Below are positions 6,645 to 53,776 of a DNA stretch of 64,000 bases, piece by piece. The notes beneath the pieces were generated by a model, which was not told the origin of the DNA, searched no databases, and worked only from the letters and a program-made list of their open reading frames with translations. The DNA is from Thermoplasmatota archaeon (GTDB taxonomy: Archaea; Thermoplasmatota; Penumbrarchaeia; Penumbrarchaeales; Penumbrarchaeaceae): positions 1 to 64,000 of the forward strand of contig JARVGK010000008.1 in assembly GCA_029762535.1 (NCBI GenBank), read 5' to 3'. The translations under genes were made by a program, and so were the position numbers. Position 1 is the first letter of the stretch; each line of letters begins with the position of its first letter.

Positions 6645-6648
6645 ATAT

Positions 6649-7434: not shown

Positions 7435-7850
7435 ACTACCGTCTATTGAGATCCTCCCTCATCCTCTCCGGATCCCCCGCCGGAACGGAGCAACTTCCCC
7501 CGCTGCACAGGTATGCCGGGGTGATCCCTTCCAGGGAAACCTTCTCCTCGATATCCTTGATGACCCCTCCGGACCAGGAAACGATCAGGAACCTGAGGAT
7601 CTGGATCGAGTCGACGGGAAAGGCTGGGACACGGTACACCCGGGAGGTCATGTCATCCCTGGAGACCTCCGGCCTCCTGGATGGCTTATACATGGACGAC
7701 CCCAGGACGAGGATCTCCCAGGGTGCTTTGATGAGGTTCCGAAGGAACTTACTTGAGAAATGGGAGGATCAGGGCCTAGTCGAGAGGGGGTCAAAGGGGA
7801 GGTATTCCCTGACCGATCAGGGATATATGATGCTTCAGATCTTCGGTTAG
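7431..7850 (+). pseudogene. C-terminal half of a wHTH protein (HFX_2341/DUF6293-like), 5' part replaced by antisense yyaL sequence
   Basis: RFRRNLLEKWEDQGLVERGSKGRYSLTDQG is a wHTH wing; the first ~33 codons lie on the yyaL remnant. Confidence 0.55.
7436..7531 (-). pseudogene. Orphan 3' end of a yyaL-like gene; direct repeat of 14447-14507
   Basis: 7471-7531 vs 14447-14507: 56/61 nt identical with a 39-nt perfect core; encodes [13 protein letters not shown] then a stop. Confidence 0.85.
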
Positions 7851-7891
7851 AATACTATAAGTTTATCTATAATACGATCCGATCGTGTTCC

Positions 7892-8638
7892 ATGGGATCG
7901 CCTGAGAGAAAAAGGGGGAAGGTGAACTCTTTCTTCGACAGGATCGCCCTAAGGAACTCCGCTCGGTTCGTCCGGATCGTCCGGTGGCTGAACAGGAAGT
8001 TCCCTGAGAGGAACATCAAAACGGCGGTGGGGATCGCCGTCTCTCTGATCCTCACTCCTCCCCTTTTTCTCCTGGTGACCTTGCTTTTACTGCCCTTTTT
8101 GATCTGGGACATCTTCGATCCCTTCGGGCTCGACGTACCATGGCTGGTATATCTGCTGTTCTTGTTCCTCTATGCATGCGTGGGTTATCTCGTGTACATG
8201 TTCGTGGAGGACGCCCTGCACATACTGGACGTGATCTATCATCCGATAAAGTATCTGAGGGGGAAACCGGCATCGGTCCTCACCAGGCCTTTGAGGAGGA
8301 TCCTCCGCAAAGGAGGGATCTATCTAGGCATCGTGCTCGTGGCGATCGAGTTGATCCTCGCGATAGCCATGGTCGTATTCGGTCCGACCGCGATCCTGGT
8401 CTTCCTGATGGTGATCATCGCTTTATTGTTCGTGACGATGATCCTTATCGGAAAGTTCGTGATGTGGCTGACCAAAGCCATCGTCAACTTCCTGGGCAAT
8501 ACCATACTCAGAAGCGTGGACAGCAGACTGAGGATCAAGGAGAGGCTCGAAAGATATGGATCCAGGGTCGATGACGAGATAAAGAGGAACCGCCTCGAGA
8601 AGAAGAGGAAGGAGTCCCACCATCCCCCTAAGCCATGA
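7892..8638 (+). CDS. Hypothetical membrane protein (~4 TM)
   Basis: Long ORF with hydrophobic helices; TATA-like sequence at ~7857-7872. Confidence 0.7.
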   Translation: MGSPERKRGKVNSFFDRIALRNSARFVRIVRWLNRKFPERNIKTAVGIAVSLILTPPLFLLVTLLLLPFLIWDIFDPFGLDVPWLVYLLFLFLYACVGYLVYMFVEDALHILDVIYHPIKYLRGKPASVLTRPLRRILRKGGIYLGIVLVAIELILAIAMVVFGPTAILVFLMVIIALLFVTMILIGKFVMWLTKAIVNFLGNTILRSVDSRLRIKERLERYGSRVDDEIKRNRLEKKRKESHHPPKP

Positions 8639-32979: not shown

Positions 32980-34212
32980 TCAAAAATCACCCATCATGAA
33001 CAGGGTCGCTATGACCTTGCAGTCGCTTATCATATTATCCACGAGGATGTGCTCGTTCGGCGCATGGGCCTGGTTCAAAACCGTCTCCCAGACAGCCACC
33101 TCGAACCCGGCGTTCCGGAGCATTGCAGCGCAGGTGCCACCTCCTATCCCCCCTGTATAGGCCTTCTTCCCGGTCGCCATCTCGATAGCGCGTGAGAGAT
33201 TTCTTACGATCATGGCATCCGGCCCGGTGGGATGGATGGTTCTCTCGTTGAGGACCACCTCGAGATCGATCCTTACTCCAGTCCTTGATTCTATATCATC
33301 CGCGACCCCTCTCATCACCGATAGGACATCCTCAGCATCATACAGAGGTAAAAGCCGGCAGTCCATGTAAAAGACATCCTCACCAGGCAGCACGTTGATC
33401 CCCGACACACCTGGTTCCCTTTTGGTAGGTTCGAAACTGGAAAGAGGGTGATCGAACGAATCGTCCCTCTGGTCAAAGCGCTCATGGAGCGCCCGATCCG
33501 CTTCGGATCCGAACATCATGGACGCCCTGAAGGCGTTGTTGCCCAGGTGGGGCATGCTTGCGTGACATTGCTTTCCCTTGACCTTTACCCTGACCCAGAG
33601 AAGGGATTTCTCACCGATCTCGATCATTCTCCCTTCAGGCTCTCCGTGATCGGGGACGAGGATGAGGTCGCTATCTCGAAAAACGCCCTCTTTGAGAAGA
33701 TGGCCGATACCTTTCTCGTTCGTCTCCTCCTCGTCGGAGACGAAGAACAGGGCAATATCAAAGGCTGGTTCCGCTCCGGTATCGAGAAGCGCCCTGGCCG
33801 CGAATATGGAGGCGGTAAGGGCCTGTCCGTTGTCCTCGGCGCCCCTGCCCGTGACCTGGCCATCCCGGACCTGAGCGTCGAAGGGATCGGACTCCCATGC
33901 GCCCGGATCGCCGGGCGGGACGACGTCCATGTGGGTGATCACGACGATCCTCCTATCGGAACTCCGACCCTTTATATCGACCATGATATTGGGCCTGAAA
34001 CCGGAACTCATATCACTGTCGGGAGCATCGAACCGCAGTATTTTCCCGAATCCGCGGTCCCGAAGGTATTTCTGGATGAACGCGGCCTTGTGCTCCTCTC
34101 CGCTGCCTCCCGATCCAGGACCTACGGCGGGTATCGAGATGATGTCGGTAAGGAAGCGAACCATCTCATCCTTATGTCCATCTATATGTTCAAACCACTC
34201 TTTATCGGCCAT
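32980..34212 (-). CDS. M20 family metallo-hydrolase (ArgE/DapE-like)
   Basis: HMDVVPPG, GRGAEDNG, DEEE, GKQCHAS, AHAPNE; starts 1 bp after the cphA stop. Confidence 0.88.
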   Translation of the reverse strand: MADKEWFEHIDGHKDEMVRFLTDIISIPAVGPGSGGSGEEHKAAFIQKYLRDRGFGKILRFDAPDSDMSSGFRPNIMVDIKGRSSDRRIVVITHMDVVPPGDPGAWESDPFDAQVRDGQVTGRGAEDNGQALTASIFAARALLDTGAEPAFDIALFFVSDEEETNEKGIGHLLKEGVFRDSDLILVPDHGEPEGRMIEIGEKSLLWVRVKVKGKQCHASMPHLGNNAFRASMMFGSEADRALHERFDQRDDSFDHPLSSFEPTKREPGVSGINVLPGEDVFYMDCRLLPLYDAEDVLSVMRGVADDIESRTGVRIDLEVVLNERTIHPTGPDAMIVRNLSRAIEMATGKKAYTGGIGGGTCAAMLRNAGFEVAVWETVLNQAHAPNEHILVDNMISDCKVIATLFMMGDF

Positions 34213-34213
34213 A

Positions 34214-36880
34214 TCAGTCCTCATTCGATGGGTCAATTGACTGCATTTCGCGTTTGCGGGACGTGTATTCCCTGAGAGAGTCCTCCTTGTAATCCAATAC
34301 GTCCTGTATGACCTGCTGGACATTATCCGCCTGAAGGACCACCACATCGCCCTTACGTGCCATGTCAAGGGCATACCTTGTCGCTTCCCTGCCGTCGAAC
34401 ACCATCGATATGTCCTCTTCTTTCAAACCGCCTTCGACAAGGCCTTGCTTGACGAGGCCCGCCACCTCCCCCAGGGGGCGGCCCCGCGGGTCCGTATCGG
34501 CGATGACAACATGGTCGTAGTATCTGGAGAGGGTGAGGCCGTACTCCTTGATGTCCTCATCCCTGCGGTTTCCAGTTCCTGCCGCCATGCGGATCCTCCT
34601 GCCCGGTGCCAGATGGGGTAGCAGCTCTCCAGTTGCCTTGATCGCGCCCATGTTATGTCCGAAATCTATTATCGCCTTGAAATCCCGGACCTCGATTATG
34701 TTCATCCTGCCGGGAGATAGGCCCAATGACGGGCTGAAGCTGACCAGCCCCGCCCTTATCTGCTTCTCGTTCAGGCCCAGGGCGGATGCGGCTGCCGCCG
34801 CGGCCATTGCGTTAAGGATGTTGAAGGTCGCTTTGCCCCCAAGGGTTATCGGCACCTCGACCACCTTGGCGACATTGGATGTCCACCCACCTTTCTGAAT
34901 GATGATGGTCTCGTCTTTGACGGTAACGTTCATGCTGCCTTTGTTCAGATTCTCTTTAAGGGCAGGGTTCTCGGGGTCCAATGAGAATAATATCGGCATA
35001 CCGCCTGCCTTGTCCCTGAGTTTGAGAACGATCGGATCGTCCGCGTTCAGGACGGAGTATCCTGTCTCCTTAACGGTCTCCACCACGATACCCTTCAGGT
35101 TCGCCAGGTCCTCCAAGGTATCGATGCCCCCTTCCCCGAGGTGATCGGAGGTCACGTTCAAGAGGACACCAACATCGCTCTCGTAAAAACCAAGCCCCCT
35201 TCTGAGGATCCCGCCCCTGGCCACCTCAAGGACCGCATGGTCTATGGTGGAATCCATAAGTACTACCTTTGCCCCGCCCGGGCCGCTGTAATCACCGACC
35301 AGTATGGGATCGTTGTTAACGACCACCGCATCCGTGGAGGTCATACCCACCCTGGCGCCGTTAAGTTCCAGAATGTGGGAGATCAGGCGGACGGTGGTCG
35401 TCTTGCCGTTGGTCCCGGTAACGGCAATTATCGGCACCTTGAACTCCTTTCCCGGAGGGAAGAGCATGTCAAGCACTTTTGCCGAGACGTTCCTGGGCTT
35501 TCCCTCCGAAGGGCTCAGGTGCATCCTGAACCCCGGGGCTGCATTGACCTCGATAACGGCCCCGCAGCCTTCGCATATCGGTTGGCTGAGATCGTTGGCG
35601 ATCATATCGATCCCCATCACGTTGAGGCCCACGATCTTGGATATCCTCTCGGCCATGGCCCTGTTGACCGGGTGCACATCATCCGTGACGTCGATCGCCT
35701 TCCCTCCTGCGCTCAGATTGGCCGTCGATTTGATGTAGACCTTCTCGCCCTCCCTCAACACCGTTTCGAGCGTCATCTGTTTGAACTTGAGCAGCCTCTC
35801 CGTCATGTAGTCTATCTTGATCCTTGTCAGGTTCTTTTCGTGTCCGAAACCCCTCGCTGGGTCGCTGTTGATCGCTTCGATGAGCTCCCTGATCGTTGAG
35901 GTGCCATCTCCAACAACGTAGGCTGGCTCTCTTAATGCAGCCGCGGTGAACTTCCCGTCTATGACGAGTATCCTGAAATCGAAACCCGCGATGAATCTCT
36001 CGATGAGCACCGTTCGGTTGTACTTCCTGGCCACCTCGTAGGCGATCTCGAGTTCCTCTCGTGTCCTGATATCGGTGGTTATCCCCTTTCCATGGTTGCC
36101 GGAGAGAGGTTTCACCACAACGGGATAACCGATCCTGTCCGCAATTCGGCATGCCTCATCGAGCTCCCAGGCCGAATAACCCTTTGGTACCGGAATACCC
36201 ATACGATCGAGCATCTCTTTGGCCCTCTCCTTGTCATCGGCGATCTCCACGCCTATGGATGAGGTGTTGTCCATCATCGTCGCCTGTATCCTTCTCTGGT
36301 GGACGCCGTATCCCAGCTGGACATAGCTCTCGTCGTTGAGCCTTATGACCGGTATATCCCTCTTCTTGGCCTCATCGACGATGGACTGCGTCGAGGGGCC
36401 GTAGAGGTTCTTTTCCCTTATCTCCTTGAGTTCGTAGACGACCTTCCTGATGTCCACATCCTCTCCCTTGAAAAGGCTCTCAACGATACGTACGGCGGCC
36501 CTGCCCGCCTCGATCCCGACCTGCTCATCACGGTAGCGGAAGACCACATGATAGATGCCCTTCCTTTTTGTGTCGAAGGTCTTGCCGAAACCCACCTCGG
36601 TCCTCGCCAGACACTGCAGTTCTATTGAGACATGTTCGACCACGTGCCCGGCCCAGGTCCCGTCTTCGATCCTCTTGAAGAAACCTCCCTCCGTACCAAC
36701 TGAACAACGATGTTCTCTAAGCGAAGGGATCGCCTCTTCGATCCTCTTCCTGAACCCCGGGACCTTGTCCGTGGGCGTTTCCTCCAGATCGCCGATGTCC
36801 AGTTCCATGAACACTGTCGGATATCGGCTGTAGTAATTCGGACCTCTGAGAGCGCGTATCTCCAATATTTCCATATTCAT
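34214..36880 (-). CDS. cphA: Cyanophycin synthetase CphA1
   Basis: ALRGPNY, Cx19HxxEH N domain, QLGYG...Q.RI, ATP-grasp (VVKP..GNHGKG, NLSAGG, EVNAAPGFRMH), Mur-ligase domain (VTGTNGKTTT, E.ARGG, DHLG, D.GHN). Confidence 0.95.
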   Translation of the reverse strand: MNMEILEIRALRGPNYYSRYPTVFMELDIGDLEETPTDKVPGFRKRIEEAIPSLREHRCSVGTEGGFFKRIEDGTWAGHVVEHVSIELQCLARTEVGFGKTFDTKRKGIYHVVFRYRDEQVGIEAGRAAVRIVESLFKGEDVDIRKVVYELKEIREKNLYGPSTQSIVDEAKKRDIPVIRLNDESYVQLGYGVHQRRIQATMMDNTSSIGVEIADDKERAKEMLDRMGIPVPKGYSAWELDEACRIADRIGYPVVVKPLSGNHGKGITTDIRTREELEIAYEVARKYNRTVLIERFIAGFDFRILVIDGKFTAAALREPAYVVGDGTSTIRELIEAINSDPARGFGHEKNLTRIKIDYMTERLLKFKQMTLETVLREGEKVYIKSTANLSAGGKAIDVTDDVHPVNRAMAERISKIVGLNVMGIDMIANDLSQPICEGCGAVIEVNAAPGFRMHLSPSEGKPRNVSAKVLDMLFPPGKEFKVPIIAVTGTNGKTTTVRLISHILELNGARVGMTSTDAVVVNNDPILVGDYSGPGGAKVVLMDSTIDHAVLEVARGGILRRGLGFYESDVGVLLNVTSDHLGEGGIDTLEDLANLKGIVVETVKETGYSVLNADDPIVLKLRDKAGGMPILFSLDPENPALKENLNKGSMNVTVKDETIIIQKGGWTSNVAKVVEVPITLGGKATFNILNAMAAAAAASALGLNEKQIRAGLVSFSPSLGLSPGRMNIIEVRDFKAIIDFGHNMGAIKATGELLPHLAPGRRIRMAAGTGNRRDEDIKEYGLTLSRYYDHVVIADTDPRGRPLGEVAGLVKQGLVEGGLKEEDISMVFDGREATRYALDMARKGDVVVLQADNVQQVIQDVLDYKEDSLREYTSRKREMQSIDPSNED

Positions 36881-36888
36881 ACCCCCCG

Positions 36889-37761
36889 TCATCTGCAAAC
36901 CAGTTCCAAGCATTCCATGTCCTCTGGCTTGAGGTACTTCATTTCCTTTAAATTATAACCATAACCCCGGACCAGAGTATGAAGATGTACGTTCTCCACA
37001 GCGATCGCATCACCTTGTTTGATAGTTGTGATGTTCGAATACCTGATGTGGCGCCCGTCGAATATCACAACAAGACCCGATCCTATGGCCTTTATTATAT
37101 GCCCCCTCTCTATGACGACACCGGTGTTCTCCCCGAGGCCCAAGCCTATATGTCCTGGGTTGGTGCTCGCTATCTGCATCAAGCGGCTGAACCTTCCCCT
37201 TTTTATGAAATGACTGTCGATAATCACGTTGTTTATGAGTCCGATCCCGGCGGTCACATTGACGGTTCCTTTAAGGATCGCTTCCGAGGCCTCCCCGCCG
37301 TAGATCATGGTCTCCGACATCGCGCTCGCTCCCGCGCTAGTTCCGGCGATGATCGCTCCGTCGTTGAAATACCTGGACCTGACCTCTTTGAGGATCCCGG
37401 TCCCTCCGAGAATGCTTGTTATGCGGAGTTGGTCTCCGCCTGTGAAGAATATGATGTCCGCCTCATGGACCCTGGCTATTAACGACCCATCATTCCCCTT
37501 ATCACGACTATCAACATGCATCAGATCTATATCGTTCCCGCCTATCTTCCCGAAGGCTTTGAGATACTGTTTCCCAACCTCGTTTGGGATCTCGCTCGCG
37601 GTCGTGATGACCTCGATCCTGACGACATCCTTCCTCGCCAGGGATATGATCGTCCTCAGGATCGAAAGATCGTGCTTCTTGTCCTCGTTGCCTCCGACGG
37701 CGACCAGGATCCCTTTCGGTTCCTGAAAGGACGACGGCCCTCTTTCCGAGAAATGGGTCAT
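36889..37761 (-). CDS. cphB: Cyanophycinase
   Basis: GGNEDK, FFTGGDQLR, GTSAGA (Ser), DSHF..RGR..RL (His), GLGENT (Glu). Confidence 0.92.
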   Translation of the reverse strand: MTHFSERGPSSFQEPKGILVAVGGNEDKKHDLSILRTIISLARKDVVRIEVITTASEIPNEVGKQYLKAFGKIGGNDIDLMHVDSRDKGNDGSLIARVHEADIIFFTGGDQLRITSILGGTGILKEVRSRYFNDGAIIAGTSAGASAMSETMIYGGEASEAILKGTVNVTAGIGLINNVIIDSHFIKRGRFSRLMQIASTNPGHIGLGLGENTGVVIERGHIIKAIGSGLVVIFDGRHIRYSNITTIKQGDAIAVENVHLHTLVRGYGYNLKEMKYLKPEDMECLELVCR

Positions 37762-37923
37762 GGAAGCATGACTTGAGTTTCAGAAGATATTTAAACCCAC
37801 GCTCCAACCGGCCTATAACCGCTCACGGCGATGTATGTTCCAGAATACCGGGGTATATACATTAATAAAGCAAGAATCGATGCGGTATGGGCCGGATCAC
37901 TTAACGGTAAAGGATGTGCGGAT

Positions 37924-39345
37924 ATGACGGATAGCGACAACACGATGGAGATCATCGTCGTCGGACTGGGTGCGAGCGGCCTCTACGCGGCAAAGAGCGC
38001 ACTCAGCCAGAACAGACAGGGCCATGTGACCATCATCGAGAAAAGGGATTTCGACCAGTTCTCACCCTGTGGCCTACCGTTCGTCATAGAGGGTATCGTT
38101 CCTGACTTCGAACACCTCAAACACGTCGTCCCCGAGGTAAAAGGGAAGCTATCCAAGCTCCTGAGGCACGAGGTCCTCTCGGTGGATCATGATAACAGGA
38201 CCTTGAAGGTAAGGGACCTCTCCACGAATGAAGATAAGGATATCGGGTACGACGCATTGATACTTTCGAACGGGTCGATCCCAGTGAACCTTCCCATCCC
38301 GGGAGCGAAAGAACTGCTGGGAAAAGGGGTATTCTTCTGCTCGAGCATCGACGATTCATCGGACATACTTGAAACCGCACTCAACGCTCCAGGAAAAAGG
38401 GCCGTTGTGGTCGGAGGAGGTGCCATAGGCCTCGAGGTCGCAGTGGCCTTGAAGGAAAGAGGGTTGGACGTATGCGTGACGAAGAGAACCCCTCCCCCGT
38501 TCCCGAGGAACCTCGACCCCGAAATGGGGAAACTGATAACCGACCATCTCATAGAGCTGGGCATCGATGTGAGGTTCGGCAAGGGAATCGACGCCATAAA
38601 CGGGAGCGACATTGTGACCTCCGTCACCATTCAGGGGGAGGAGGTCCCCTGCGACCTCGTCGTGATGGCGGTAGGTACACGACCCAACACCTCACTGGCC
38701 GAAAGCACAGGCTGCTTGACGGTCAGGGACGGTATAGTGGTCGATAACAGGATGGAGACGACCGTCAAAGGGATCTTCGCCACGGGGGACTGCGTCAGGA
38801 CATATTCCCGCATCGACGGCACGTCGGCCACCATGCAGCTTGCCACATCCGCTTTCAGGCAGGGCATGGTAGCCGGGACCAATGCCGCAGGAGGCAATGT
38901 GGGATATGATGGTGTGCTCAACACGTTCCTCACCAAGATAGGGAGGTTGGAGATCGCATCCACCGGATACACGCTCGAGCAGGCGAAGGCCTTGGGATAT
39001 GATGCGATCGGGATATCGACCAGGAAGGAGATCAAGCCCCATTACATGCCCGACTGCCCCGATATCAACCTCAGGGTCGTATGCGAGAAGATTGACGGCA
39101 GGATACTAGGCTTCCAGGCCGTCGGCGAACAGGGCGCCGGGTGGAGGGCAAATATATTCGCCCTTGCGATACAGGCAAGGATGACCTTGCAGGATATCAT
39201 GGATGCTGAGCTGTCCTACAATCCTCCGGTATCCCAGATGTACGATCCGATCTACCAGCTTGTCGAGATAGCCCTCAAGAGGCTGAGGCTGGAATTCCCT
39301 TCCCCGAAGGAGGTCTTCATTCCGGATGAGCAGAAGAGGTGGTAG
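37924..39345 (+). CDS. NADH oxidase / CoA-disulfide reductase family flavoprotein
   Basis: GLGASG, FSPCGLP (single redox Cys), GGGAIGLE, ATGDC, YNPP. Confidence 0.88.
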   Translation: MTDSDNTMEIIVVGLGASGLYAAKSALSQNRQGHVTIIEKRDFDQFSPCGLPFVIEGIVPDFEHLKHVVPEVKGKLSKLLRHEVLSVDHDNRTLKVRDLSTNEDKDIGYDALILSNGSIPVNLPIPGAKELLGKGVFFCSSIDDSSDILETALNAPGKRAVVVGGGAIGLEVAVALKERGLDVCVTKRTPPPFPRNLDPEMGKLITDHLIELGIDVRFGKGIDAINGSDIVTSVTIQGEEVPCDLVVMAVGTRPNTSLAESTGCLTVRDGIVVDNRMETTVKGIFATGDCVRTYSRIDGTSATMQLATSAFRQGMVAGTNAAGGNVGYDGVLNTFLTKIGRLEIASTGYTLEQAKALGYDAIGISTRKEIKPHYMPDCPDINLRVVCEKIDGRILGFQAVGEQGAGWRANIFALAIQARMTLQDIMDAELSYNPPVSQMYDPIYQLVEIALKRLRLEFPSPKEVFIPDEQKRW

Positions 39346-40070
39346 TCACGCCAGAGGAAGTTATCGCATCGAAATGGCATCTGCTCAAGGATGGGACCTT
39401 CGAGATCGATGGCGGATTCCTGGTATACGGCGTCCAGAAATACTACGGGAAGAAATTGACCGCGCATCTCAAACCACTATATGTCGAATCGGGGGATGAA
39501 AGGATACTGATAGACACCGGGATCGGCGATCCCCCGGAGAGGTATTCCTCGACCTACAAGGTGAGGAAGGATGAGGACCTGATGGGATCTCTCAAAGGGA
39601 TCGGCCTCTCTCCCGAGGACATAACGATGGTGATCAACACCCACCTTCACTTCGACCATACGGGCTACAACACGTCTTTCACCAACGCGAGATTCCTCTC
39701 CCAGGTCGATGAGATAAGGTACAGCGCACAGCCAGACAGGTTCCAAAAAGGGGCTTATCTCAAGGACAATATCAAGGACATCGATTTCTTGGCGCTCGAT
39801 GGGGAATGCGAGGTGGCGCCAGGCGTGACCGTTATACCCACACCAGGTCATACGCCCGGACATCAATCGGTCATAGTCGAGCTTGAGCAAGAGGTCCTTA
39901 TCTATACGGGCGATGTCTCTCCCTTGAGGATCAACCTGGAAAAGGACCTGATCGTAGGGGTCCTCCACGACCCTGTGGCGGCGCAGAGGTCCCTATCGAT
40001 TTTATGCGCCCTCTCGGACTGGTTCCCTGAAAAGCTCAAGAGATACATATTCAGCCATGACATGGAGTGA
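39339..40070 (+). CDS. MBL-fold metallo-hydrolase (AHL-lactonase-like)
   Basis: LIDTG, THLHFDHTG, TPGHTPGHQS, GD, HD. Confidence 0.88.
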   Translation: MVVTPEEVIASKWHLLKDGTFEIDGGFLVYGVQKYYGKKLTAHLKPLYVESGDERILIDTGIGDPPERYSSTYKVRKDEDLMGSLKGIGLSPEDITMVINTHLHFDHTGYNTSFTNARFLSQVDEIRYSAQPDRFQKGAYLKDNIKDIDFLALDGECEVAPGVTVIPTPGHTPGHQSVIVELEQEVLIYTGDVSPLRINLEKDLIVGVLHDPVAAQRSLSILCALSDWFPEKLKRYIFSHDME

Positions 40071-42748
40071 TCCATACGCTTACCGAGAAGGAGATGAAAC
40101 AGAGGGTAAAGGAGGAGGCCTCGAGGGACCCTGACCGCTTCTTCCCCACCGGGAAGATGAAGGAAATGGGGCTGATGAGAAGGACATGCCCTAAATGCGG
40201 GACCTTCTTCTGGAGCGCTGATGCGGAACGGACCCTCTGCGGTGAACCAGCATGCCTTGGGGGCTACTCCTTCATAGGAAGGAAGAGCTGCAAGCATAGA
40301 ATGGATTTCATCGGCGTCTGGAAGAGGTTCTCCGAACTGTTCTCCAGTAGGGGTTACACCCCCATCAAGAGATATCCATCTATCTCACGATGGAACTCGA
40401 CATCGGAGTTCACCCTGGCCTCGATCACCGACTTTCAGCCCTACGTCGTCCGCGGAGCGGTCAAACCACCGGCCAACCCCCTGGTGGTACCTCAGACATG
40501 CCTGAGGTTCAACGATGTGGACAACGTTGGAATAACGGGCAGGCACAACACGGGTTTCATAATGATAGGGCAGCATGCCTTCGAGCCGGAGCGGAGTTTC
40601 GATCAGGACAGGTATTTCGAAGATATCCATGCCTGGCTGGTTGAGGGCATGGGGATCCCTCTCACGGAGATCGTCTATCATGAGGACGCATGGGCAGGGG
40701 GTGGGAACTTCGGATGCTCCCTGGAGTTCTTCTCCGGGGGGCTCGAGATCGGGAACCAGGTCTATACTATGTACGAGCGGGATGGAGATTCCCTTAAAGG
40801 ACTTGATATTCGGGTACTTGACATGGGAATGGGGCAGGAGAGGCCAGCATGGTTCTCGCACGGCACCCCTACGTCCTACGAGCCCAACTTCCCGACCGTT
40901 ATGGAGAGGCTGTTCAAGATCGCCGGGATCGGTCCTGAAGGTGAGGAGAAGGAGCTGATGATGAGATTCCTGCCCTATTCCGGCCTCCTGAACCTTGAGG
41001 AAGTGGATGACATCGACAAAGTATGGGCTGATATAGCCGAAAGGATAGGAGCCGAAGAGGGGCTGCTGCGGCGCAGCGTTATGATCAACGCGGCCCTCTA
41101 TTCGATAGCGGACCATGCCAGAGGGCTTCTGTTCGCCCTTACGGACGGGGGGCTGCCATCGAACTCCGGCGGAGGATACAATCTCAGGCTCATCTACCGC
41201 AGGGCCATGAACTTCATAGAGAAGTACGGCTGGAACCTGGACATGGGCGATGTCTGCCACTGGCATGCGGAATACCTTAAACCCCAGTTCCCAGAGATGC
41301 TGGATTCCTTATCCGAGGTGCGTGAGATCATTGACCATGAGAGGGGGAAATTCCTCCAGACCAGAGAGAAAGCCAGGTCTACCGTCATAAAGCTCAAGGA
41401 AAAGGAGATGCGCGGGCAGAGGGTCTCAGTGGATGATCTTATAATGCTCTACGATTCGCAGGGTATTACCCCTGATCTTATGCTGGACTCGGGCCTCGAC
41501 GTATCGGTCCCGCCGGACTTCTACGCCAGGGTCTCGGCCCTGCACGAAGCAACGGAGCCATCGGCACGAACCGGGAAGGAGTTCCAATACGAACTTTCCA
41601 CCATACCCGAGACGAAGATACTTTATTACGACGACTACCTCATGGTCGAGTTCGAGAGCGAGGTCATGGCTGTGATCGAAGATAACGTGATATTGAAGGC
41701 TACCGCCTTCTACCCGACCTCGGGGGGGCAGCTCCATGACATCGGTTCCCTCCATGGGCCATCCGATCTCCGGGTAACGGAGGTCTTCAAGCAGGACAGG
41801 GTCATCCTCCACAAGGTCAGCGGAGATCTCTCAAAATGGAGCGCTGGCACAAAGGCCAGAGGGCATATAGATGAGGAGCGCAGGAGACAGCTTGCCCAGC
41901 ACCACACATCGACCCACATCATAAACGGAGTGGCCAAATCCATACTGGGAGGCCATATCTGGCAGGCCGGCGCTGAGAAGACCGAGGAGAAGGGCAGGCT
42001 CGACATCACCCATTACGAGTCTCTGAGCCCATCTCAGCTCGAGTCGATAGAGGAGAGGGCCAACGAGATAATTTCCTCATCCCTGCCAGTCAGATCGATG
42101 GTACTTGCCAAGGACGAGGCCGAGAGAAGGTTCGGATTTCGGCTTTATCAGGGTGGTGCCGTCCCCGGCGAGACGCTGAGGATCATCGACATCGACGGGC
42201 TGGATACTGAGGCTTGCGGCGGAACACACCTGAAGAACACGTCCGAAGCGGTTCGCATAATACTTCTCGGTACCAAGAAGATCCAGGACGGCATCGTCAG
42301 GATAGAATACGTGGCGGGCAAAAGAGCGAGGGATATATACGAGTCCGATCTGGACCATCTCCTTCGGGCCATGGCCGTGCTTTCGATAGATGATCCGCAC
42401 GACCTCGTTAGTGCCTGCGAGCGCGTCTTCAACCTCTGGAAAACGGCCAGAAAGCTACGCGCTAGGATCAGGTCAGCAAATCCCGATAGTGCGAATGGGG
42501 AGAAGGAAGATGCCCTTGTAATTCTGAGAGGGGATCCTGCCTACCCTTATCTTGAGTCCTATCGGAAATTGGGCCGGCCTACGGACATCGGAGGGGTCGA
42601 TCCCAACTCGGTGAAGAAAATAATGAGGCCGCACGAGTATGTGACCAGGGCCGCACAATCCTTCAAAGTGCAGAAAGAGCATCTGGGAAAGACCATCTTA
42701 AGGTTTCTATCAGAGACAGATTCGTTCGAGGAGGACATACAGAGGTGA
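40067..42748 (+). CDS. alaS: Alanyl-tRNA synthetase (archaeal type)
   Basis: CPKCGTFFWS, ASITDFQP, PPANPL, FYPTSGGQ, editing HTSTH and ACGGTH. Confidence 0.95.
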   Translation: MIHTLTEKEMKQRVKEEASRDPDRFFPTGKMKEMGLMRRTCPKCGTFFWSADAERTLCGEPACLGGYSFIGRKSCKHRMDFIGVWKRFSELFSSRGYTPIKRYPSISRWNSTSEFTLASITDFQPYVVRGAVKPPANPLVVPQTCLRFNDVDNVGITGRHNTGFIMIGQHAFEPERSFDQDRYFEDIHAWLVEGMGIPLTEIVYHEDAWAGGGNFGCSLEFFSGGLEIGNQVYTMYERDGDSLKGLDIRVLDMGMGQERPAWFSHGTPTSYEPNFPTVMERLFKIAGIGPEGEEKELMMRFLPYSGLLNLEEVDDIDKVWADIAERIGAEEGLLRRSVMINAALYSIADHARGLLFALTDGGLPSNSGGGYNLRLIYRRAMNFIEKYGWNLDMGDVCHWHAEYLKPQFPEMLDSLSEVREIIDHERGKFLQTREKARSTVIKLKEKEMRGQRVSVDDLIMLYDSQGITPDLMLDSGLDVSVPPDFYARVSALHEATEPSARTGKEFQYELSTIPETKILYYDDYLMVEFESEVMAVIEDNVILKATAFYPTSGGQLHDIGSLHGPSDLRVTEVFKQDRVILHKVSGDLSKWSAGTKARGHIDEERRRQLAQHHTSTHIINGVAKSILGGHIWQAGAEKTEEKGRLDITHYESLSPSQLESIEERANEIISSSLPVRSMVLAKDEAERRFGFRLYQGGAVPGETLRIIDIDGLDTEACGGTHLKNTSEAVRIILLGTKKIQDGIVRIEYVAGKRARDIYESDLDHLLRAMAVLSIDDPHDLVSACERVFNLWKTARKLRARIRSANPDSANGEKEDALVILRGDPAYPYLESYRKLGRPTDIGGVDPNSVKKIMRPHEYVTRAAQSFKVQKEHLGKTILRFLSETDSFEEDIQR

Positions 42749-43316: not shown

Positions 43317-43640
43317 GGGCCGAGAGAAGGCGGATGGCCGACGGTGGCCCATGAGGCCGCTGGGGAAAGTCCTCCCTCGTCGGGATGCCCGGGCCGGGCG
43401 CAAGCCCGGGGCGCGAGAGCGTCGGCAATGGAGCAGAAACGACACCACCGCGTATAATGGGATGATGGGATATGTCCCGGACGTCTGCGCGGATAGGATG
43501 AAACGGCCAACCCCCCGGGGAGCAAGCCCAAATGTCCGATACGACCCCATCCCGGGATCGGAAGGTAGGGCGCTCAGATAGATGCCATCTACCCGCTTCC
43601 GCGGGAAAACAGAAGGAGGCTTATGTCCTTGACTCGACCC
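43317..43640 (+). ncRNA. rnpB: RNase P RNA (archaeal)
   Basis: GGGGAAAGTCCTCC (from 43362) pairs with AACAGAAGGAGGCTTA (P4); GAAACG elements; P1 ends pair; TATA TTTTATA at 43286-43292. Confidence 0.93.
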
Positions 43641-43734
43641 GCACTATCCCATCAGCGAACAGTTTAATTACATGCATCCTTTTCCAATGAAAAAACCCGA
43701 CAATGGGATCGGATCTTCGAAGTGGTGCTGTATC

Positions 43735-44196
43735 ATGGAACAGGACGATATCAATAAGGTCGCCCGGCAGATAGAGATGGGATTGGCCAGGATGGATTCC
43801 CTCAGGGGACAGATGGACTCATTGAAGGGACAGATGGAGGCTTTGAGAGCGGTCATAATCGACCATGGGTCATCGATGGACTCCCTGAAAGAGCTAAAGA
43901 CCGGGTCCTCTGACAGGTCCCTGATCGGGCTGGGATCCCAGGTCTTCATCAATGTCAGGATAGAGGATACGGACCATTGCATCCTGAGCGAAGGAGCTGG
44001 AATATACATCAAAAGGGATATCGACACCGCTATCTCTGCCATCGAGGATAGGAAGAAGGTCCTCGAGGACGTGATAGAGAGGCTAGGATCCCAGCTCAAC
44101 GAAATGGCCGAGGCCTACAACTCCCTCGCTGCACAGACACAGGAGCTTTACGGTCAGCAGATGCTGATGGCGCAAGGTACGCAAGGTAATTTCTGA
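43735..44196 (+). CDS. pfdA: Prefoldin alpha subunit
   Basis: Coiled coil-beta hairpins-coiled coil; LIGLGSQVF...GAGIYI; upstream of ftsY. Confidence 0.85.
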   Translation: MEQDDINKVARQIEMGLARMDSLRGQMDSLKGQMEALRAVIIDHGSSMDSLKELKTGSSDRSLIGLGSQVFINVRIEDTDHCILSEGAGIYIKRDIDTAISAIEDRKKVLEDVIERLGSQLNEMAEAYNSLAAQTQELYGQQMLMAQGTQGNF

Positions 44197-44211
44197 TCAT
44201 GGGGTGTGGAG

Positions 44212-45339
44212 ATGTTCTCGGCTCTCAAGGAGAAGCTCAGGTCCTTCAAGAAGAAGGCGAAGGACGACCTTGAACAGGAGAGGGCCGCAGGACCTGTTAA
44301 AGTTAATGAGCAGGATACCAGGGCCAGAAAGGAATCTAAGTTCCTGGGAAAGATCTTCTCAAAGAAAACCAAGAAGGATGGAATCGACCAGAACGCCGGT
44401 CCGGCCTCGGATGGACACATCGAGGTGAAGGAAGCAGGGGCCTTTGCCCTTCAAGGCCGTGATTCTCTCATAGAGGAAGGAGGGGGGATCTTCGCCAAGA
44501 AGATTACCCAGGACAAGCTTGAAGATATCATGTTCGATCTCGAGATGGCTCTGCTTGAATCCGATGTGGCCCAGGGTGTCGTCGAGAGGATCAAGAACTA
44601 CATCATAAAGGAGCTTGAGGGCGCTAAAGTGAAAAGGAGCAGCGAATTGGAAGATGTCATAGAGGGCGCCTTGAAAAAAGCGATCAGACAGGTTCTTGAC
44701 ATAAAGAGCATCGATCTCATCGACAGTATACGGGCCAGCGAGAAACCCTACGTTGTGATGTTCGTAGGTGTGAACGGAACGGGTAAGACCACCGCTATAG
44801 GCAGGATCGCTCATCGGCTGCAGAGAGAAGGCATCTCATGCGTTCTCGCTGCAGGGGATACGTTCAGGGCCGGGGCCATAGAACAGCTCACAAAGCATGC
44901 CGAGAACCTGGGGTTAAAGATCATAAAGCACTCGGCAGGCGCGGACCCGGCTGCCGTCGCATACGATGCGATAGAACATGCCAAGGCAAGGAAGAAGGAC
45001 GTGGTGCTTCTGGATACGGCCGGTAGGATGCAGACCAACATAAATCTCATGGACGAGATGAAGAAGATCAGAAGGATCGCAAGACCAAATCTCATCGTGT
45101 TCGTAGGCGACGCGCTTGCCGGCAACGACGCCGTGATCCAGGCCAGCGAGTTCGACAAGGCCGTCGGCGTCGACGGGGCCATTCTTACGAAGATCGACGC
45201 TGACGCCAAGGGCGGCGCAGCGCTGTCCATTGCTTACACGATCGGCAAGCCCATCCTGTACGTAGGGACCGGGCAGGGATACGAGGACCTCGAACCGTTC
45301 GATGCGAACTGGATGATCGAGAGGCTCTTCGAGGAGTAG
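44212..45339 (+). CDS. ftsY: SRP receptor FtsY
   Basis: GVNGTGKTT, DTFRAGA, DTAGR, TKIDADAKGG. Confidence 0.96.
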   Translation: MFSALKEKLRSFKKKAKDDLEQERAAGPVKVNEQDTRARKESKFLGKIFSKKTKKDGIDQNAGPASDGHIEVKEAGAFALQGRDSLIEEGGGIFAKKITQDKLEDIMFDLEMALLESDVAQGVVERIKNYIIKELEGAKVKRSSELEDVIEGALKKAIRQVLDIKSIDLIDSIRASEKPYVVMFVGVNGTGKTTAIGRIAHRLQREGISCVLAAGDTFRAGAIEQLTKHAENLGLKIIKHSAGADPAAVAYDAIEHAKARKKDVVLLDTAGRMQTNINLMDEMKKIRRIARPNLIVFVGDALAGNDAVIQASEFDKAVGVDGAILTKIDADAKGGAALSIAYTIGKPILYVGTGQGYEDLEPFDANWMIERLFEE

Positions 45340-48976: not shown

Positions 48977-51900
48977 TCAATCCCCGGACATCTCATTCAG
49001 GAGGTCCTGAAGCGATTTTTCCCTGTCGGTGGAGACGGTCCTGTCCGAATCTATTGTATCTGACGTGCTTACCTCCTGAATGGTCTCGGAGGCCACAAGG
49101 TTCATCCATGCATCCTCCGATGTCTCATCGACGAGCGTCGGGGCCTCCTGTTGGGCCTTTTCTGCCGGCTCGGTCTCCGAAGGCTGTCCAGATGCAGCGA
49201 TACCGGCCGATGGGACCGATCTTCCCAGTCCCTTCGGCTGAGGCGCCGTCCTCGCCCCGTTCGAACTCGCCATCCCGTACTCGGACTCGAGCTCCGAGAG
49301 CTCGGATTCGATATCGCGATGTTTCTCTTCGGTCTTTCTCTTCACCAGGAAGTAATATAGGCCTCCCAGGACCATCATGATCAGGACGATGACTATGATC
49401 CCGATGATGATATACAAGCCAATGGGGTCCTCCTCAGGCGGGGCGACCTGAACCGGTCTCTGCGTTATCTCAAGAGGGACCGAGACGTTCCTGATTATGC
49501 CCCAGTTCGACTCGAAAGTGAAGTTCAGGGTATAATTGCCTACCGTTGCGTTGGGAAGGATCTCGACATCGAGGTTGATCACCAGCTCCTGCTGGATATC
49601 CAGGCGGTAAATGCCGTTCCTGATCAGGAGCCACTCGTATCTGATGAGGGAACCCATCGGTCCGTCGTGGCCTTCTAGATCAATGATCGGAGTGATGTTC
49701 ATGGGCTTCTGCCCGATGTTCGCGATGTCGAAGGATAGGATCGAAGTTGGGGTCCCCTGCTGCAGTTTAATCCTCTCGACATGGGAGGATACCGTAAAGG
49801 CATAGTTCTCCTCGTTGGAGACGGAGAACGAGAAGACACCGTTCGTGCAGTTTCCGACGAACTTGTTCTGGGCCACGGGGACAACGGTCCAGTAATAGGT
49901 TCCGAAATCCAGACCGATCGGGTCGTATGTAGTCCCCTTGAAGACCTCCGTCCAGAGTGATGAGGACTTGAGCTCGAGGACGTCGAGCTTCCTGTTCGAC
50001 ATGTATATCTTATAGGATACGTCCTCTGGATCGAAGAACGTCACGTTCCATTCCAGTTTAACGTCGTCCGGATCCGCGAAATCCGTTCCGTCAGGCGGCC
50101 ATACCAGGGTCGCGATGGGATATCTCAGCGAGGTGTCGACCAGAATATTATAGACTGTGGATGTGAAGACCGTGCCCGCTCCATCCTGGCATTTGAACTG
50201 AATGAAATTATCATATGTGTCGCTGAGGCCCTTGAGCTCCAGGACGAATTGATAATTGTCCTGGTGGAAGGATGTCCATATGTCCTGAACGTATTTCCAC
50301 GAGGCGATCCCCAGCCATTGAACGGGATCATTTAGCCCATTGTTGCTGAAACGATACATCACCGACTGGGATATTATCGTGGATCCGCCCAGGTCCGTCA
50401 TGTTTATCTCGAAATCGATGGCGGTATAGGGGACGATCTCATCCAGGTCCGGTCTTATCACCGTGAAGGTGGTCGGGTCCATGTCGATCATTATCCGAGC
50501 GCTCTCCGCTGGACCTATGTTGCCGACGAGGTCCTCCGCCCATACGTATATCGTATGCGCTCCCTTGCCTGGAAGCTCAACGACCGCGTCGAGGCCCGAT
50601 TCCACCCGAGTTCCGTTCCTCGTTCCTCCGTTATCTTCGAATGACCAATAGTAGAACAGGACGCCTGAAGCGGTCTCCGGAGCGCTCTGCCAGCTCAGGA
50701 ACACCTCCGTATCGTTGTCGTACCTGGTCCTCTGGTCGTTAAGGTCATCCGCATGCAGTATCACCGTTGGGGGCTTTCCCGGCGGATCCGCATCCGTGGA
50801 AAGACGGAATGAAAGATCGGATGTGTCCGTATCGGGAGGGACCCCGGAAATGTTGATCCTGTACCTGTATTCCGTTTTCGTGGTGTTCGGTGAGACCAGG
50901 GTGATATTGAGGGGCTCCCCGGGCATATGGGAGCTTGTGAACATCTCATCATCCTCGTCCCACAGCGTCAGCATGTAGCTGTCCAATGGCGGATACAGGT
51001 CCGCTCCGACGTAGGCCACAACGGGACCCAAGAAGTTCACCCATTCCCCTGCCCGGATCCAGCTCTGGTTCTGGATCGGCCCCTGGACCTCCGAGCTGAC
51101 AGAAAGAACGCCCCTCAGCTCCAGCTGATTACGAACTGTCAGGAAGTTCCTGACGATCAGCTCATCGGGGGCCACGTCATATCCCATGATCCTCACGGTC
51201 ACGCTGCGGTCGATTATGTTCGGCCTGTTGGTCCAGGTCCAGTTGAACTTGATCCACATGTCCAGGTTCAGGAAGACCCCATCGACGGATACGCTCCGAT
51301 CCACTAGGAAGCCCCTGTTTCCCGGATCATGCTCGACCCAAGTCCCCTGGGTGTGATTGTAAACGACCGAGAATGCACCGTCCCTGTGGTTGAATATGTA
51401 TCTTACCTCGCTGATCTCGGACACATCCTCGACCGCTTTGACCATGGATGTGAAATGGTATGGCTTGAGCATGGAATATGCAACGTTCGCACCTTCCGAA
51501 GGGTCGTCGAAGGAGACCCTCTGTATGGCCAGCCTGTATGGGATGCCGAACCTCCATATCCCATGCCTTCCCGAACCATATATCCAGAGGTCCCTCGTCT
51601 CGGGGATGAATATGGAAGCGTGATTGTCCAGGTCCCCCGGGTGCACCAGATAGTATTCCGGATACCATTTCCCCTCCAGTATCCTGTACTTCGACATGTC
51701 GTTGTTCTGGCTTCCCCCCGTCATGATTATCTCCCTGGTCAGGGGATCGTAGCTCATCTTGGAATACGCCCTGCTCGATGGTTTGAACTGCGCGTCGATC
51801 TCGGTCCAGGTCTGGGTGGAGAAATCGTAGGTCCAGAGGTCGTTCTCCTCCTGGGCGTTGGCCCCTCCTTCTTTAAGGTACCATCCCCCGAAGAGATACA

Positions 51901-53776
51901 GCAGATGGTCGTCCGGCTCGTACATTAGCGCGGCGCCGTAACGCATCCCTGGCGTGGTCCCTGCGGGGTTCAGCTTGCTGAAGGCCGTGCTCGCCGGGTC
52001 GAAGCTGTAGAAATCGTCGTATATTATCCGGTCGGAGGAGGTCGTTGGATGGTAGTAGCCTCCGTAGAAGTATATCTTGCCGTCCTTGGTGTTGAGGACC
52101 ATATCGAAGCCCTGCCTGGGACCGGGACCTGCCGGAGCCCAGACCACAGACCATTCGAACGTATCGAGATCTATCTTCCACATGTCGTCGCGGTTGTAGT
52201 AATACGTGGTCTGGCCCTGTCGCGTGGTGTACCCGCCGCCGTATATGAACACCTCGTTCCTGTCGGGAACGTAGCAGATCCCGGCATTGCTTCTCGATCC
52301 AGGATTGCTCGATCCGCTGTTATAAATCGGACCTTTCCAATCCCTGGTCATCAGGTCGAAATAATAGATATAGCCAGATCCGTTGCCTCCCCATCCCGAT
52401 ACCAGGTTCGGACCGATATAATACAGCCTCTGCTGCACCTCGTTGTGTGCGAAGATGCCCCCGTTCACCGAACTCACAGATGTGTTGAGCGGGAACCGGG
52501 TCCACTCCTTTGTCGTCATGGTCATGTAGTTCATATCCCTGTATCTGTACGGATATGAGTACGGCTCGGAGGAGTACCACCTGCCCTGAAAAACGAAGAA
52601 GAGATCGGCGGCGGATGAATAATGGGTCGTGTAGAACATCCTGCCGCTGGGGCTGTCCCCCGCAGAGAAATGCTTCCATGACCATGACTGCATATCGGCG
52701 TTATATGTCCACAGCGTCCTGTTCATCGTGGTCTGCTGCATGGTCTGGCGGCCGCCCCATATGTTTACAGTGAGATCGGTCCCCGTTCTCCTGAAGAACA
52801 TCTTCGAGCCGTGGAGGACCATGGACTGCATGCTGATGTCCGTTGAGAGCTGGGTCCACTGATCGGACGGGATGTTGTACACCCAGAAATCGTTGAGATA
52901 GACATTATTATCAGTCCCTATCCTGTGTCTCCCTCCGTAGAGGTAGATGTTCTTGTTGACGGTATCTATGCACATGTCGTGATCGTAACGCTCGATGAGG
53001 CCTGAACCGGAGCCGTCGTTCAATGATACCGGGGCCTGCATGGGCTTGCTGATATCGATCTTGTAAAAACCGGTCAGGTTGTCGTAGTCGTTCTGGGCCT
53101 TGCCCATGTGTATATAGAGCATGCCCATATCCCCGTCCATGGGATCGATGACCATGGGCGCCCCGGCCCTCCTTGTGGTGAACACAGAGGATGAGAGCCT
53201 TGTCCAGGCCTCGGTGTCCATGTCGAATACCCAGAGATCGTTGACCATGGACCCGTCCATGTATCCGCCGTAGATGTATATCTTCCCGCGTATCTCGTCC
53301 ACGGCGTAGGATGAAAGGTATCTGCCGCCAGGGCTCGTCGCTTTTTCGACAGATACCCATCTCTGGGTGTTGATGTCGAAGTAGAACATGTCGTTGATCG
53401 TGTTGTGTGTTATCTGACCCCCGAAACCCGTGCTCTGATAGCCGCCGCCGTATGTGTATACCCTTCCCGAGCTCGCGTTATATCCCATAACCCCGGACTC
53501 CCCGGACTGATGATAGCTGAACCTCTCCCACAGCCCCCATGGCTCGCTCCTTACCGCATCGGGAGGCAGCGGGATCCCCATCTCGAGGACCTCCTCTTCT
53601 TTGATAAGGTTGTCCGACATCTCCTCGATCTGAACAATGACATCCACATCGTCGGCCCCTGCGACATCCTGGCTCCCTTCGCTAAGGAGCGGGATCGGCA
53701 GTGCCATGATAAAGGTCAAAAACAGCGCAGCTAACATCTTCCACGAGGGATTGGATGGCCTGAACACGTGCATCAC
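48977..53776 (-). CDS. Large surface protein: Kelch beta-propellers + Ig/FN3-like domains + C-terminal TM and acidic tail
   Basis: Signal peptide; many IYxYGG...NDxW.Y......W repeats; C-terminal IIIGIIVIVLIMMVLGGLYYF anchor. Confidence 0.85.
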   Translation of the reverse strand: MMHVFRPSNPSWKMLAALFLTFIMALPIPLLSEGSQDVAGADDVDVIVQIEEMSDNLIKEEEVLEMGIPLPPDAVRSEPWGLWERFSYHQSGESGVMGYNASSGRVYTYGGGYQSTGFGGQITHNTINDMFYFDINTQRWVSVEKATSPGGRYLSSYAVDEIRGKIYIYGGYMDGSMVNDLWVFDMDTEAWTRLSSSVFTTRRAGAPMVIDPMDGDMGMLYIHMGKAQNDYDNLTGFYKIDISKPMQAPVSLNDGSGSGLIERYDHDMCIDTVNKNIYLYGGRHRIGTDNNVYLNDFWVYNIPSDQWTQLSTDISMQSMVLHGSKMFFRRTGTDLTVNIWGGRQTMQQTTMNRTLWTYNADMQSWSWKHFSAGDSPSGRMFYTTHYSSAADLFFVFQGRWYSSEPYSYPYRYRDMNYMTMTTKEWTRFPLNTSVSSVNGGIFAHNEVQQRLYYIGPNLVSGWGGNGSGYIYYFDLMTRDWKGPIYNSGSSNPGSRSNAGICYVPDRNEVFIYGGGYTTRQGQTTYYYNRDDMWKIDLDTFEWSVVWAPAGPGPRQGFDMVLNTKDGKIYFYGGYYHPTTSSDRIIYDDFYSFDPASTAFSKLNPAGTTPGMRYGAALMYEPDDHLLYLFGGWYLKEGGANAQEENDLWTYDFSTQTWTEIDAQFKPSSRAYSKMSYDPLTREIIMTGGSQNNDMSKYRILEGKWYPEYYLVHPGDLDNHASIFIPETRDLWIYGSGRHGIWRFGIPYRLAIQRVSFDDPSEGANVAYSMLKPYHFTSMVKAVEDVSEISEVRYIFNHRDGAFSVVYNHTQGTWVEHDPGNRGFLVDRSVSVDGVFLNLDMWIKFNWTWTNRPNIIDRSVTVRIMGYDVAPDELIVRNFLTVRNQLELRGVLSVSSEVQGPIQNQSWIRAGEWVNFLGPVVAYVGADLYPPLDSYMLTLWDEDDEMFTSSHMPGEPLNITLVSPNTTKTEYRYRINISGVPPDTDTSDLSFRLSTDADPPGKPPTVILHADDLNDQRTRYDNDTEVFLSWQSAPETASGVLFYYWSFEDNGGTRNGTRVESGLDAVVELPGKGAHTIYVWAEDLVGNIGPAESARIMIDMDPTTFTVIRPDLDEIVPYTAIDFEINMTDLGGSTIISQSVMYRFSNNGLNDPVQWLGIASWKYVQDIWTSFHQDNYQFVLELKGLSDTYDNFIQFKCQDGAGTVFTSTVYNILVDTSLRYPIATLVWPPDGTDFADPDDVKLEWNVTFFDPEDVSYKIYMSNRKLDVLELKSSSLWTEVFKGTTYDPIGLDFGTYYWTVVPVAQNKFVGNCTNGVFSFSVSNEENYAFTVSSHVERIKLQQGTPTSILSFDIANIGQKPMNITPIIDLEGHDGPMGSLIRYEWLLIRNGIYRLDIQQELVINLDVEILPNATVGNYTLNFTFESNWGIIRNVSVPLEITQRPVQVAPPEEDPIGLYIIIGIIVIVLIMMVLGGLYYFLVKRKTEEKHRDIESELSELESEYGMASSNGARTAPQPKGLGRSVPSAGIAASGQPSETEPAEKAQQEAPTLVDETSEDAWMNLVASETIQEVSTSDTIDSDRTVSTDREKSLQDLLNEMSGD

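Follow-up and report, generated by a model that had tools for sequence, protein, structure and literature searches.

The 64,000-nucleotide stretch of archaeal DNA analyzed here (hereafter the window), which is the first 64 kb of the 106.5-kb contig JARVGK010000008.1 in a 102-contig, 93%-complete genome assembly (GCA_029762535.1) of a Thermoplasmatota archaeon, carries what is probably a functional cphB-cphA1-M20 cyanophycin operon of an anaerobic, protein-degrading sediment archaeon. Three head-to-tail open reading frames (ORFs) occupy positions 37761-32980 of the minus strand and encode, in this order, a cyanophycinase, a cyanophycin synthetase 1, and an M20 (ArgE/DapE-type) dinuclear metallohydrolase. 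An earlier note on this DNA had read the same interval as cphB and cphA1. The adjacency and shared orientation of that pair hold, but the interval also contains the M20 gene at 34212..32980, which the note left uninterpreted and which is the most distinctive part of the operon. With M20 as its third gene, the operon represents a new form of the known cyanophycin system.

The assignment of the first two genes rests on matches along the whole of each product. The cphB product (290 amino acids; 36889..37761, minus strand) scores 244 bits against the cyanophycinase model TIGR02069 (cut-off 126.6) and matches the Pfam family Peptidase_S51 (PF03575). When it is aligned to the structures 7UQV and 3EN0, residues S142, H184, and E211 fall on the triad that is S132/H174/E201 in Synechocystis CphB (PDB 3EN0). 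Judged by eye on the translation, the N terminus of CphB is polar and without a hydrophobic stretch, and that of the M20 protein likewise lacks one, which suggests a cyanophycinase of the intracellular type and an intracellular pathway. The cphA product (886 amino acids; 34214..36874, minus strand) reaches 1163 bits against TIGR02068 (cut-off 850) over model positions 1-859 of 862 and contains, within residues 36-861, the Pfam domains PF18921 (Cyanophycin_syn, the N domain), ATP-grasp, PF08245 (Mur_ligase_M), and PF02875 (Mur_ligase_C). It aligns over its full length, at 798 bits, with the primer-independent SuCphA1 of Synechocystis sp. UTEX2470 (PDB 7LG5/7LGJ/7TXU), with which it shares the architecture of N, G (ATP-grasp), and M (Mur-ligase) domains. 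The motifs VVVKP and IEVNAAPG of the ATP-grasp domain and GTNGKTT, TSDHLG, NADD, PGRMN, and DFGHN of the Mur-ligase domain, whose functional assignment we take from general knowledge of both superfamilies, are all present and are invariant among 18 archaeal and bacterial sequences, as are the residues of the N-domain motif Cx19HxxEH. What the earlier note had described from the letters alone, namely a full-length cphA1 with three intact sites and a CphB with its Ser-His-Glu triad, is borne out by these alignments, and the Cx19HxxEH string that it quoted was located at 36706..36632.

The metal-site codons of that motif (36632..36706, minus strand) specify C57, H77, E80, and H81 in the numbering of the 886-residue protein, equivalent to C59, H79, E82, and H83 of SuCphA1; in the numbering of the long ORF the motif covers residues 70-94. 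Cx19HxxEH was defined by Sharon et al. as the motif that generates primers, and 83% of nonredundant CphA1s carry it (PMC9262961). Its presence predicts primer-independent synthesis by this CphA1, and the motif is ordinary rather than special because so large a share of CphA1s has it. Assignment to CphA2 or to a degenerate paralogue was ruled out, since nothing is missing from the M domain and the alignments with CphA2 structures extend only over residues ~145-584. The genome has a single strong cphA copy. On the strength of these comparisons, CphA and CphB are ordinary members of the CphA1 and CphB families, and the cphBA pair very probably makes and degrades cyanophycin; NCBI already annotates close homologues as "cyanophycin synthetase [Thermoplasmatota archaeon]." The system differs from that of SuCphA1 in its host, which is an anaerobic heterotrophic archaeon and not a cyanobacterium, and in its operon, which has M20 downstream.

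The spacing of the three genes suggests that they are expressed together. The cphB stop codon (TGA, 36891-36889) is followed by GGGGGGT, a ribosome-binding-like run, and after a gap of 14 nucleotides by an ATG at 36874. This ATG, and not the start of the long ORF at 36913, is likely the start of cphA; it gives the 886-residue product, to which a database gene call of 886 amino acids is 100% identical. A single nucleotide separates the cphA stop codon from the M20 ATG (TGAtATG), with GAGGA preceding the M20 start, and the M20 gene (410 amino acids; 32980..34212, minus strand) ends 12 nucleotides from the convergent gcvPB. Upstream, an archaeal TATA-box-like element read from the sequence, TTTAAATA (37788..37795, minus strand), ends 27 nucleotides before the cphB ATG, within the spacer between cphB and a divergent CoA-disulfide-reductase-like gene, a position that would imply a leaderless or very short-leader operon transcript. 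Because of the 14- and 1-nucleotide gaps, the Shine-Dalgarno-like runs, and the TATA-like box, we infer that the genes form a single translationally coupled operon and would be transcribed as one unit.

The third gene sets this operon apart. The M20 protein contains PF01546 and PF07687, scores 253 bits on TIGR01910 and 499 bits on NF010589 of the NCBIfam ArgE/DapE deacylase family, and belongs to the uncharacterized NF010589/PRK13983 group. Its best solved relative is DapE, the N-succinyl-L,L-diaminopimelate desuccinylase of Haemophilus influenzae (3IC1, 5VO3; ~84 bits), with which it has the catalytic and dimerization domains in common and whose ligands H67, D100, E134/E135, and H349 have conserved counterparts in it; DapE is nevertheless only a distant relative, and the M20 clade linked to cph genes has substitutions of its own beside the ligands. 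The ligands H94, D127, E161/E162, D188, and H383 of the archaeal protein are invariant in 37 cph-linked and housekeeping sequences and align with those of DapE, D188 being assigned by position where the local DapE alignment is gapped. Five residues, T133, N165, H189, E376, and N380, are fixed in the linked clade at positions where housekeeping copies have V/I, S, A/S/G, S/G/A, and D/E, respectively, and each lies a few residues from the ligands D127, E161/E162, D188, and H383 or from the invariant W375.

The distribution and phylogeny of M20 tie this copy to cphA. Among the relatives compared, genomes with cphA have two M20 paralogues and those without it have only the housekeeping one. The cph-linked copies are 54-68% identical to the M20 of the window and copies elsewhere 43-47%, the housekeeping copy of this genome lying at C7:8544-9761. 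The neighbors of the housekeeping gene (NUDIX, nuclease/phosphatase, aminotransferase, and Nre genes) give no clue to its function. In a careful mixture-model tree, 18 of 18 cph-linked M20s form one clade (support 100/99), whose sister group (95/92) is the housekeeping M20 of the window's order and which is nested among the housekeeping copies of the class. Because of this nesting, the tree identifies the linked M20 as a duplicate of the native archaeal housekeeping M20 and not a bacterial passenger. Of 401 evenly sampled Thermoplasmatota genomes, 17 have a linked-type M20 (≥54% identity), and in all 17 it lies directly downstream of cphA, a count that overstates independence, as these genomes are kin and represent about four families. 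The linkage spans at least four CphA clades, which are that of the family itself, that of loci L074, L081, and L115, an L080-like clade (genome G029), and an Aminicenantes-like clade (L099); the metagenomic contigs L114 and L115 are further examples of cphA followed by M20. The other ORFs of L099, which is labeled "uncultured bacterium," have no match in the window's genome. No linked M20 was found in about 50 bacterial-labeled cph loci, the nearest ones included.

These features raise the question of whether M20 carries out the last step of cyanophycin breakdown, the hydrolysis of the β-Asp-Arg dipeptide. IaaA is an established β-Asp-Arg hydrolase (PMC10206079), and a desuccinylase family was the source of CphZ, a dedicated dipeptidase discovered in 2023 (PMC9974463). 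When the genome, which is 93% complete, was searched, IadA (best score 32 bits against a cut-off of 331), Asparaginase_2 (IaaA), and AstE/AspA-type proteins all gave no match, and M20 itself is not a member of the IadA amidohydrolase, N-terminal nucleophile Asparaginase_2, or M14 AstE/AspA families. In M20-less archaeal clusters, an IaaA-type Asparaginase_2 gene can adjoin cphBA: in the cluster of a Poseidoniia metagenome-assembled genome (MAG; L070; 3438-4370, plus strand) it immediately follows cphA, in the slot of M20, and in that of another Thermoplasmatota MAG (L106; 2276-3169, plus strand) it immediately precedes cphB. These two archaeal clusters cover all three steps, in the manner of bacterial ones. 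Because of its paralogy, its linkage to cphA only, the substitutions beside its ligands, its IaaA-like slot, and the lack of IadA, IaaA, and CphZ in the genome, we regard M20 as a candidate β-Asp-Arg hydrolase, and give this assignment an even chance of being correct. The substrate would be chemically plausible in that β-Asp-Arg can be regarded as an aminosuccinyl amide, chemically near the N-succinyl compound on which DapE acts. The proposed role is that of CphZ (M14, succinylglutamate-desuccinylase/aspartoacylase family, from Acinetobacter baylyi), IaaA, and IadA, which cleave the β-Asp-Arg released by cyanophycinase; CphZ and M20 are both encoded in a cph cluster and both come from a "desuccinylase" lineage. 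The fold and family of M20 (dinuclear, DapE/ArgE type) are unrelated to those of all three enzymes, and the likeness is one of predicted role. More tentatively, and at odds that we would put a little short of even, the cph-linked M20s may constitute a fourth, archaeal-born family of dedicated cyanophycin-dipeptide hydrolases, duplicated in or near class EX4484-6 and kept beside cphBA while the synthetase was swapped among at least four lineages.

Several observations weigh against a dedicated dipeptidase. The active site of M20 is very like that of the housekeeping paralogue, and the linkage count is drawn, as noted, from related genomes. Archaeal clusters L080, L085, L087, L088, L094, and L095 have no adjacent hydrolase, and a dedicated dipeptidase is therefore not obligatory. 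In CP070629.1, a complete 3.58-Mb genome of a Thermoplasmata archaeon, M20 is intact downstream of a 157-amino-acid Mur_ligase_C remnant that is 59% identical to the CphA C terminus, and M20 can therefore be useful without a synthetase. That decayed cluster (L113; 7498-9260 and 9925-10407) runs from the remnant through the linked-type M20, which is intact, to a transposase of the Y1 (IS200-like) type. An ArgE-like role in ornithine or arginine supply is possible. On such a reading cphBA would act as proposed above, and M20 would be an ArgE/DapE-like deacylase that boosts the supply of ornithine and arginine (or lysine), or a general dipeptidase that happens to share the transcript. This would account for the family in which the NCBIfam models place M20, for the metal ligands, all of which, with most of the active site, are common to M20 and the housekeeping paralogue, and for the intact M20 beside a decayed cphA. 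Yet a housekeeping M20 is already present in every genome, the linked clade has fixed H189, E376, N380, N165, and T133 near the ligands, the known β-Asp-Arg hydrolases were not found in the genome, M20 takes the slot that IaaA has in other archaeal clusters, and it lies downstream of, and translationally coupled to, a gene pair that includes the degrading enzyme. For these reasons we consider the deacylase or general dipeptidase role unlikely and prefer hydrolysis of β-Asp-Arg.

It is more doubtful still that canonical cyanophycin is not what these archaea store, and that the operon instead serves a variant polyamide rich in Lys, ornithine, or citrulline, or the use of cyanophycin and β-dipeptides from neighboring bacteria. 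CphZ-type dipeptidases do occur in nonproducers that scavenge dipeptides (PMC9974463), one archaeal genome has kept M20 without cphA, and the hosts are peptide scavengers. Set against this are the full-length match to SuCphA1 with its three active sites intact, the lack (by eye) of signal sequences in CphB and M20, and the retention of a synthetase free of stop codons in nearly all relatives, and we think synthesis and internal use of cyanophycin by the archaeon far better matched to these data, with the variant or scavenging role very improbable.

The archaeal setting of the operon, which the earlier note had recognized, is evident from an archaeal-type alaS at 40067-42748 (TIGR03683), an archaeal RNase P RNA at 43322-43635 (182 bits), and the genes for prefoldin alpha (43672-44196) and FtsY (44206-45339), and the glycine-cleavage genes gcvT/PA/PB also flank it. 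Its composition is native: G+C at third codon positions deviates little from the genome (z-scores of -0.17, +0.38, and -0.10 for the three operon genes), its codon-usage distance is typical of the long ORFs of the genome, and GATC has a density of 11.3 per kb within the operon, compared with 10.6 per kb over the whole genome, in agreement with the GATC-rich style that the note had seen to be shared with neighboring genes. The cphB-cphA-M20 trio is present in all 10 of the relatives' loci examined, which were independently assembled and whose flanks are the same in some and entirely different in several, and the order ftsY-pfdA-alaS-CoADR-cphB-cphA-M20-gcvPB-gcvPA-gcvT is identical on a 258-kb contig from an independent assembly of another genus. 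Because of this conserved synteny in independent assemblies, the native composition, and the archaeal descent of M20, a chimeric join or recent import is, on genomic grounds, excluded for practical purposes. That a bacterial fragment was joined to, or binned with, archaeal DNA, as the note had warned and as the metagenome-type assembly in 102 contigs and the bacterial identity of the closest nonarchaeal CphAs (62-67% identity) might suggest, is effectively refuted by the placement of the operon well inside a 106.5-kb contig with archaeal housekeeping genes on either side, the repeated ten-gene order, a composition indistinguishable from that of the genome, and an M20 of archaeal descent inside the operon.

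A few features of the surroundings deserve mention. Divergent from cphB, at 37831-40070, are genes for a CoA-disulfide-reductase-like flavoprotein and a lactonase-like protein of the metallo-β-lactamase fold; the first of these is a conserved cph neighbor in three other genera (genomes G004, G011, and G023), with no evident functional tie to cyanophycin. The genome-wide frequency of GATC is ~2.7 times what chance would give for a tetramer (~3.9 per kb), which hints at unusual methylation or restriction biology or at codon or dipeptide bias. Elsewhere in the window, positions 4001-8000 have a G+C content of 0.34-0.39, compared with ~0.53 for the genome, and may be a foreign island, and positions 48977-53776 (minus strand) hold an ORF of 1599 amino acids.

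The origin of the cphBA pair is less simple than a single gift from bacteria. CphA trees of 72 sequences (quick search) and 43 sequences (careful) were built from loci obtained in a pattern scan of GTDB species genomes, a sample biased to sequences having two peptide words in common with the query; the trees were rooted at the midpoint. The CphAs of the family form one clade (95/89), which is sister (100/98) to a group made up of a further family member (G003) and a diverse Bacillota clade (100/100). The next branch contains Aminicenantes, Bacteroidota, and a Poseidoniia archaeon, and three other Thermoplasmatota clades lie deeper. At least four changes of domain are required by the tree. Forcing monophyly of the family's CphAs including G003 costs 45 log-likelihood units (approximately unbiased test, p = 0.02, for a group named after the tree was seen). 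A single bacterial-to-archaeal transfer is not supported, as the trees interleave Thermoplasmatota and bacterial clades. These topologies indicate repeated passage of cphBA between the two domains, with Thermoplasmatota and anaerobic bacteria as the partners. Because cphA is inherited across most of the family and is fully ameliorated, its acquisition appears from these data to be older than the family radiation. Of the old transfer from bacteria that the note had proposed, the age stands, and the direction is not shown by an interleaved tree in which Bacillota branch next to or within the family. A bacterial origin of cphBA is plausible, and the Bacillota clade beside one family member may derive from archaea and not the reverse.

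Two loci that branch basally, or almost so, in the Bacillota CphA clade bear on where the domain boundary is drawn: L055, from Thermoplasmatota BLK5-1.bin.203, and L044, a 9.3-kb contig of the MAG "Bacillota bacterium BLK3-3.bin.26." The latter has cphA without cphB and may be mis-binned, which would move the apparent boundary in the tree. The cphB-cphA operons of bacteria (Tindallia, Anoxynatronum, and Halanaerobiales MAGs of the Bacillota; Acidobacteriota/Aminicenantes), which form the nearest branch in the CphA tree, have the same gene order, with genes that abut or overlap, and their products are 62-67% (CphA) and 52-60% (CphB) identical to the archaeal ones; unlike the archaeal operon, all of them lack a downstream M20 gene.

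Within its own lineage the operon is a common possession. The host belongs to Thermoplasmatota class EX4484-6, described as Ca. Penumbrarchaeia on the basis of a protein-amended enrichment organism and characterized as rare, catabolic degraders of proteins and amino acids (PMC12220078); that enrichment organism, MAG Protein_d157_A_EX4484-6, is a member of the same family as the window's genome and is in our set as genome G008 (locus L037). When CphA was searched for in 37 species genomes of the class, it was found in 17 of the 24 species of the window's family, with no exception among the eight whose completeness is 90% or more, and in a single genome from a different family. The wider archaeal search that the earlier note had called for finds CphA in 40 of the 401 sampled Thermoplasmatota (~10%), 23 of them among the 368 genomes outside the class (~6%), where they represent seven or more additional families. 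This archaeon is not alone in having the system. Stop codons interrupt the genes only occasionally: cphA is conserved without them in nearly all relatives, but in two genomes of the same family the cluster looks damaged. The cphA at G007:C109:2448-5027 has one in-frame TAA, and the M20 at G020:C2:40257-41325 is in two pieces with a TAA, either of which may be a pseudogene or a sequencing error.

The literature regards cyanophycin, a nitrogen-storage polymer, as a product of bacteria. In line with the note's impression that no archaeal system has been characterized, our literature search found no report of an archaeal cyanophycin synthetase and only a remark on archaeal cyanophycinases (PMC9723716). 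The main bioinformatic surveys of cyanophycin cover bacteria only (PMC10206079, PMC9974463), and the word cyanophycin is absent from the sole genomic paper on class EX4484-6 (PMC12220078). IadA and IaaA are missing from about one-quarter of CphA-bearing genomes (PMC9974463). As a possible representative of a new class of cyanophycin dipeptidase, M20 is a concrete candidate that can be tested at low cost.

Taken together, these observations suggest how the operon may work. When amino acids are plentiful, CphA1 would polymerize Asp and Arg with ATP into multi-L-arginyl-poly-L-aspartate, priming itself through the N-domain Cx19HxxEH motif. Cytoplasmic CphB would later cut the polymer to β-Asp-Arg dipeptides, and the cotranslated M20 would split these to Asp and Arg in place of IaaA, IadA, or CphZ, the freed amino acids then feeding an amino-acid-fermenting metabolism. 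A carbamate kinase and a member of the arginase family are encoded in the genome, in which no arginine deiminase was found. The proposed system would have been assembled from two sources, the cphBA pair coming from a stock of genes that Thermoplasmatota and anaerobic bacteria have exchanged on several occasions and M20 from a duplicate of the native archaeal housekeeping gene that was recruited into the operon. Synthesis of the polymer in vivo, the substrate of M20, and use of the polymer as a reserve of nitrogen and amino acids are each what this scheme would predict for a feast-and-famine life. Because a high-abundance enrichment of an organism from the same family exists, it is feasible to look for the polymer directly in an archaeon. 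If the scheme is correct, archaea would join the producers of a polymer of biotechnological interest, and the family-wide operon would provide these rare, protein-fermenting sediment archaea with an internal reserve of Asp and Arg with which to live through alternating feast and famine.

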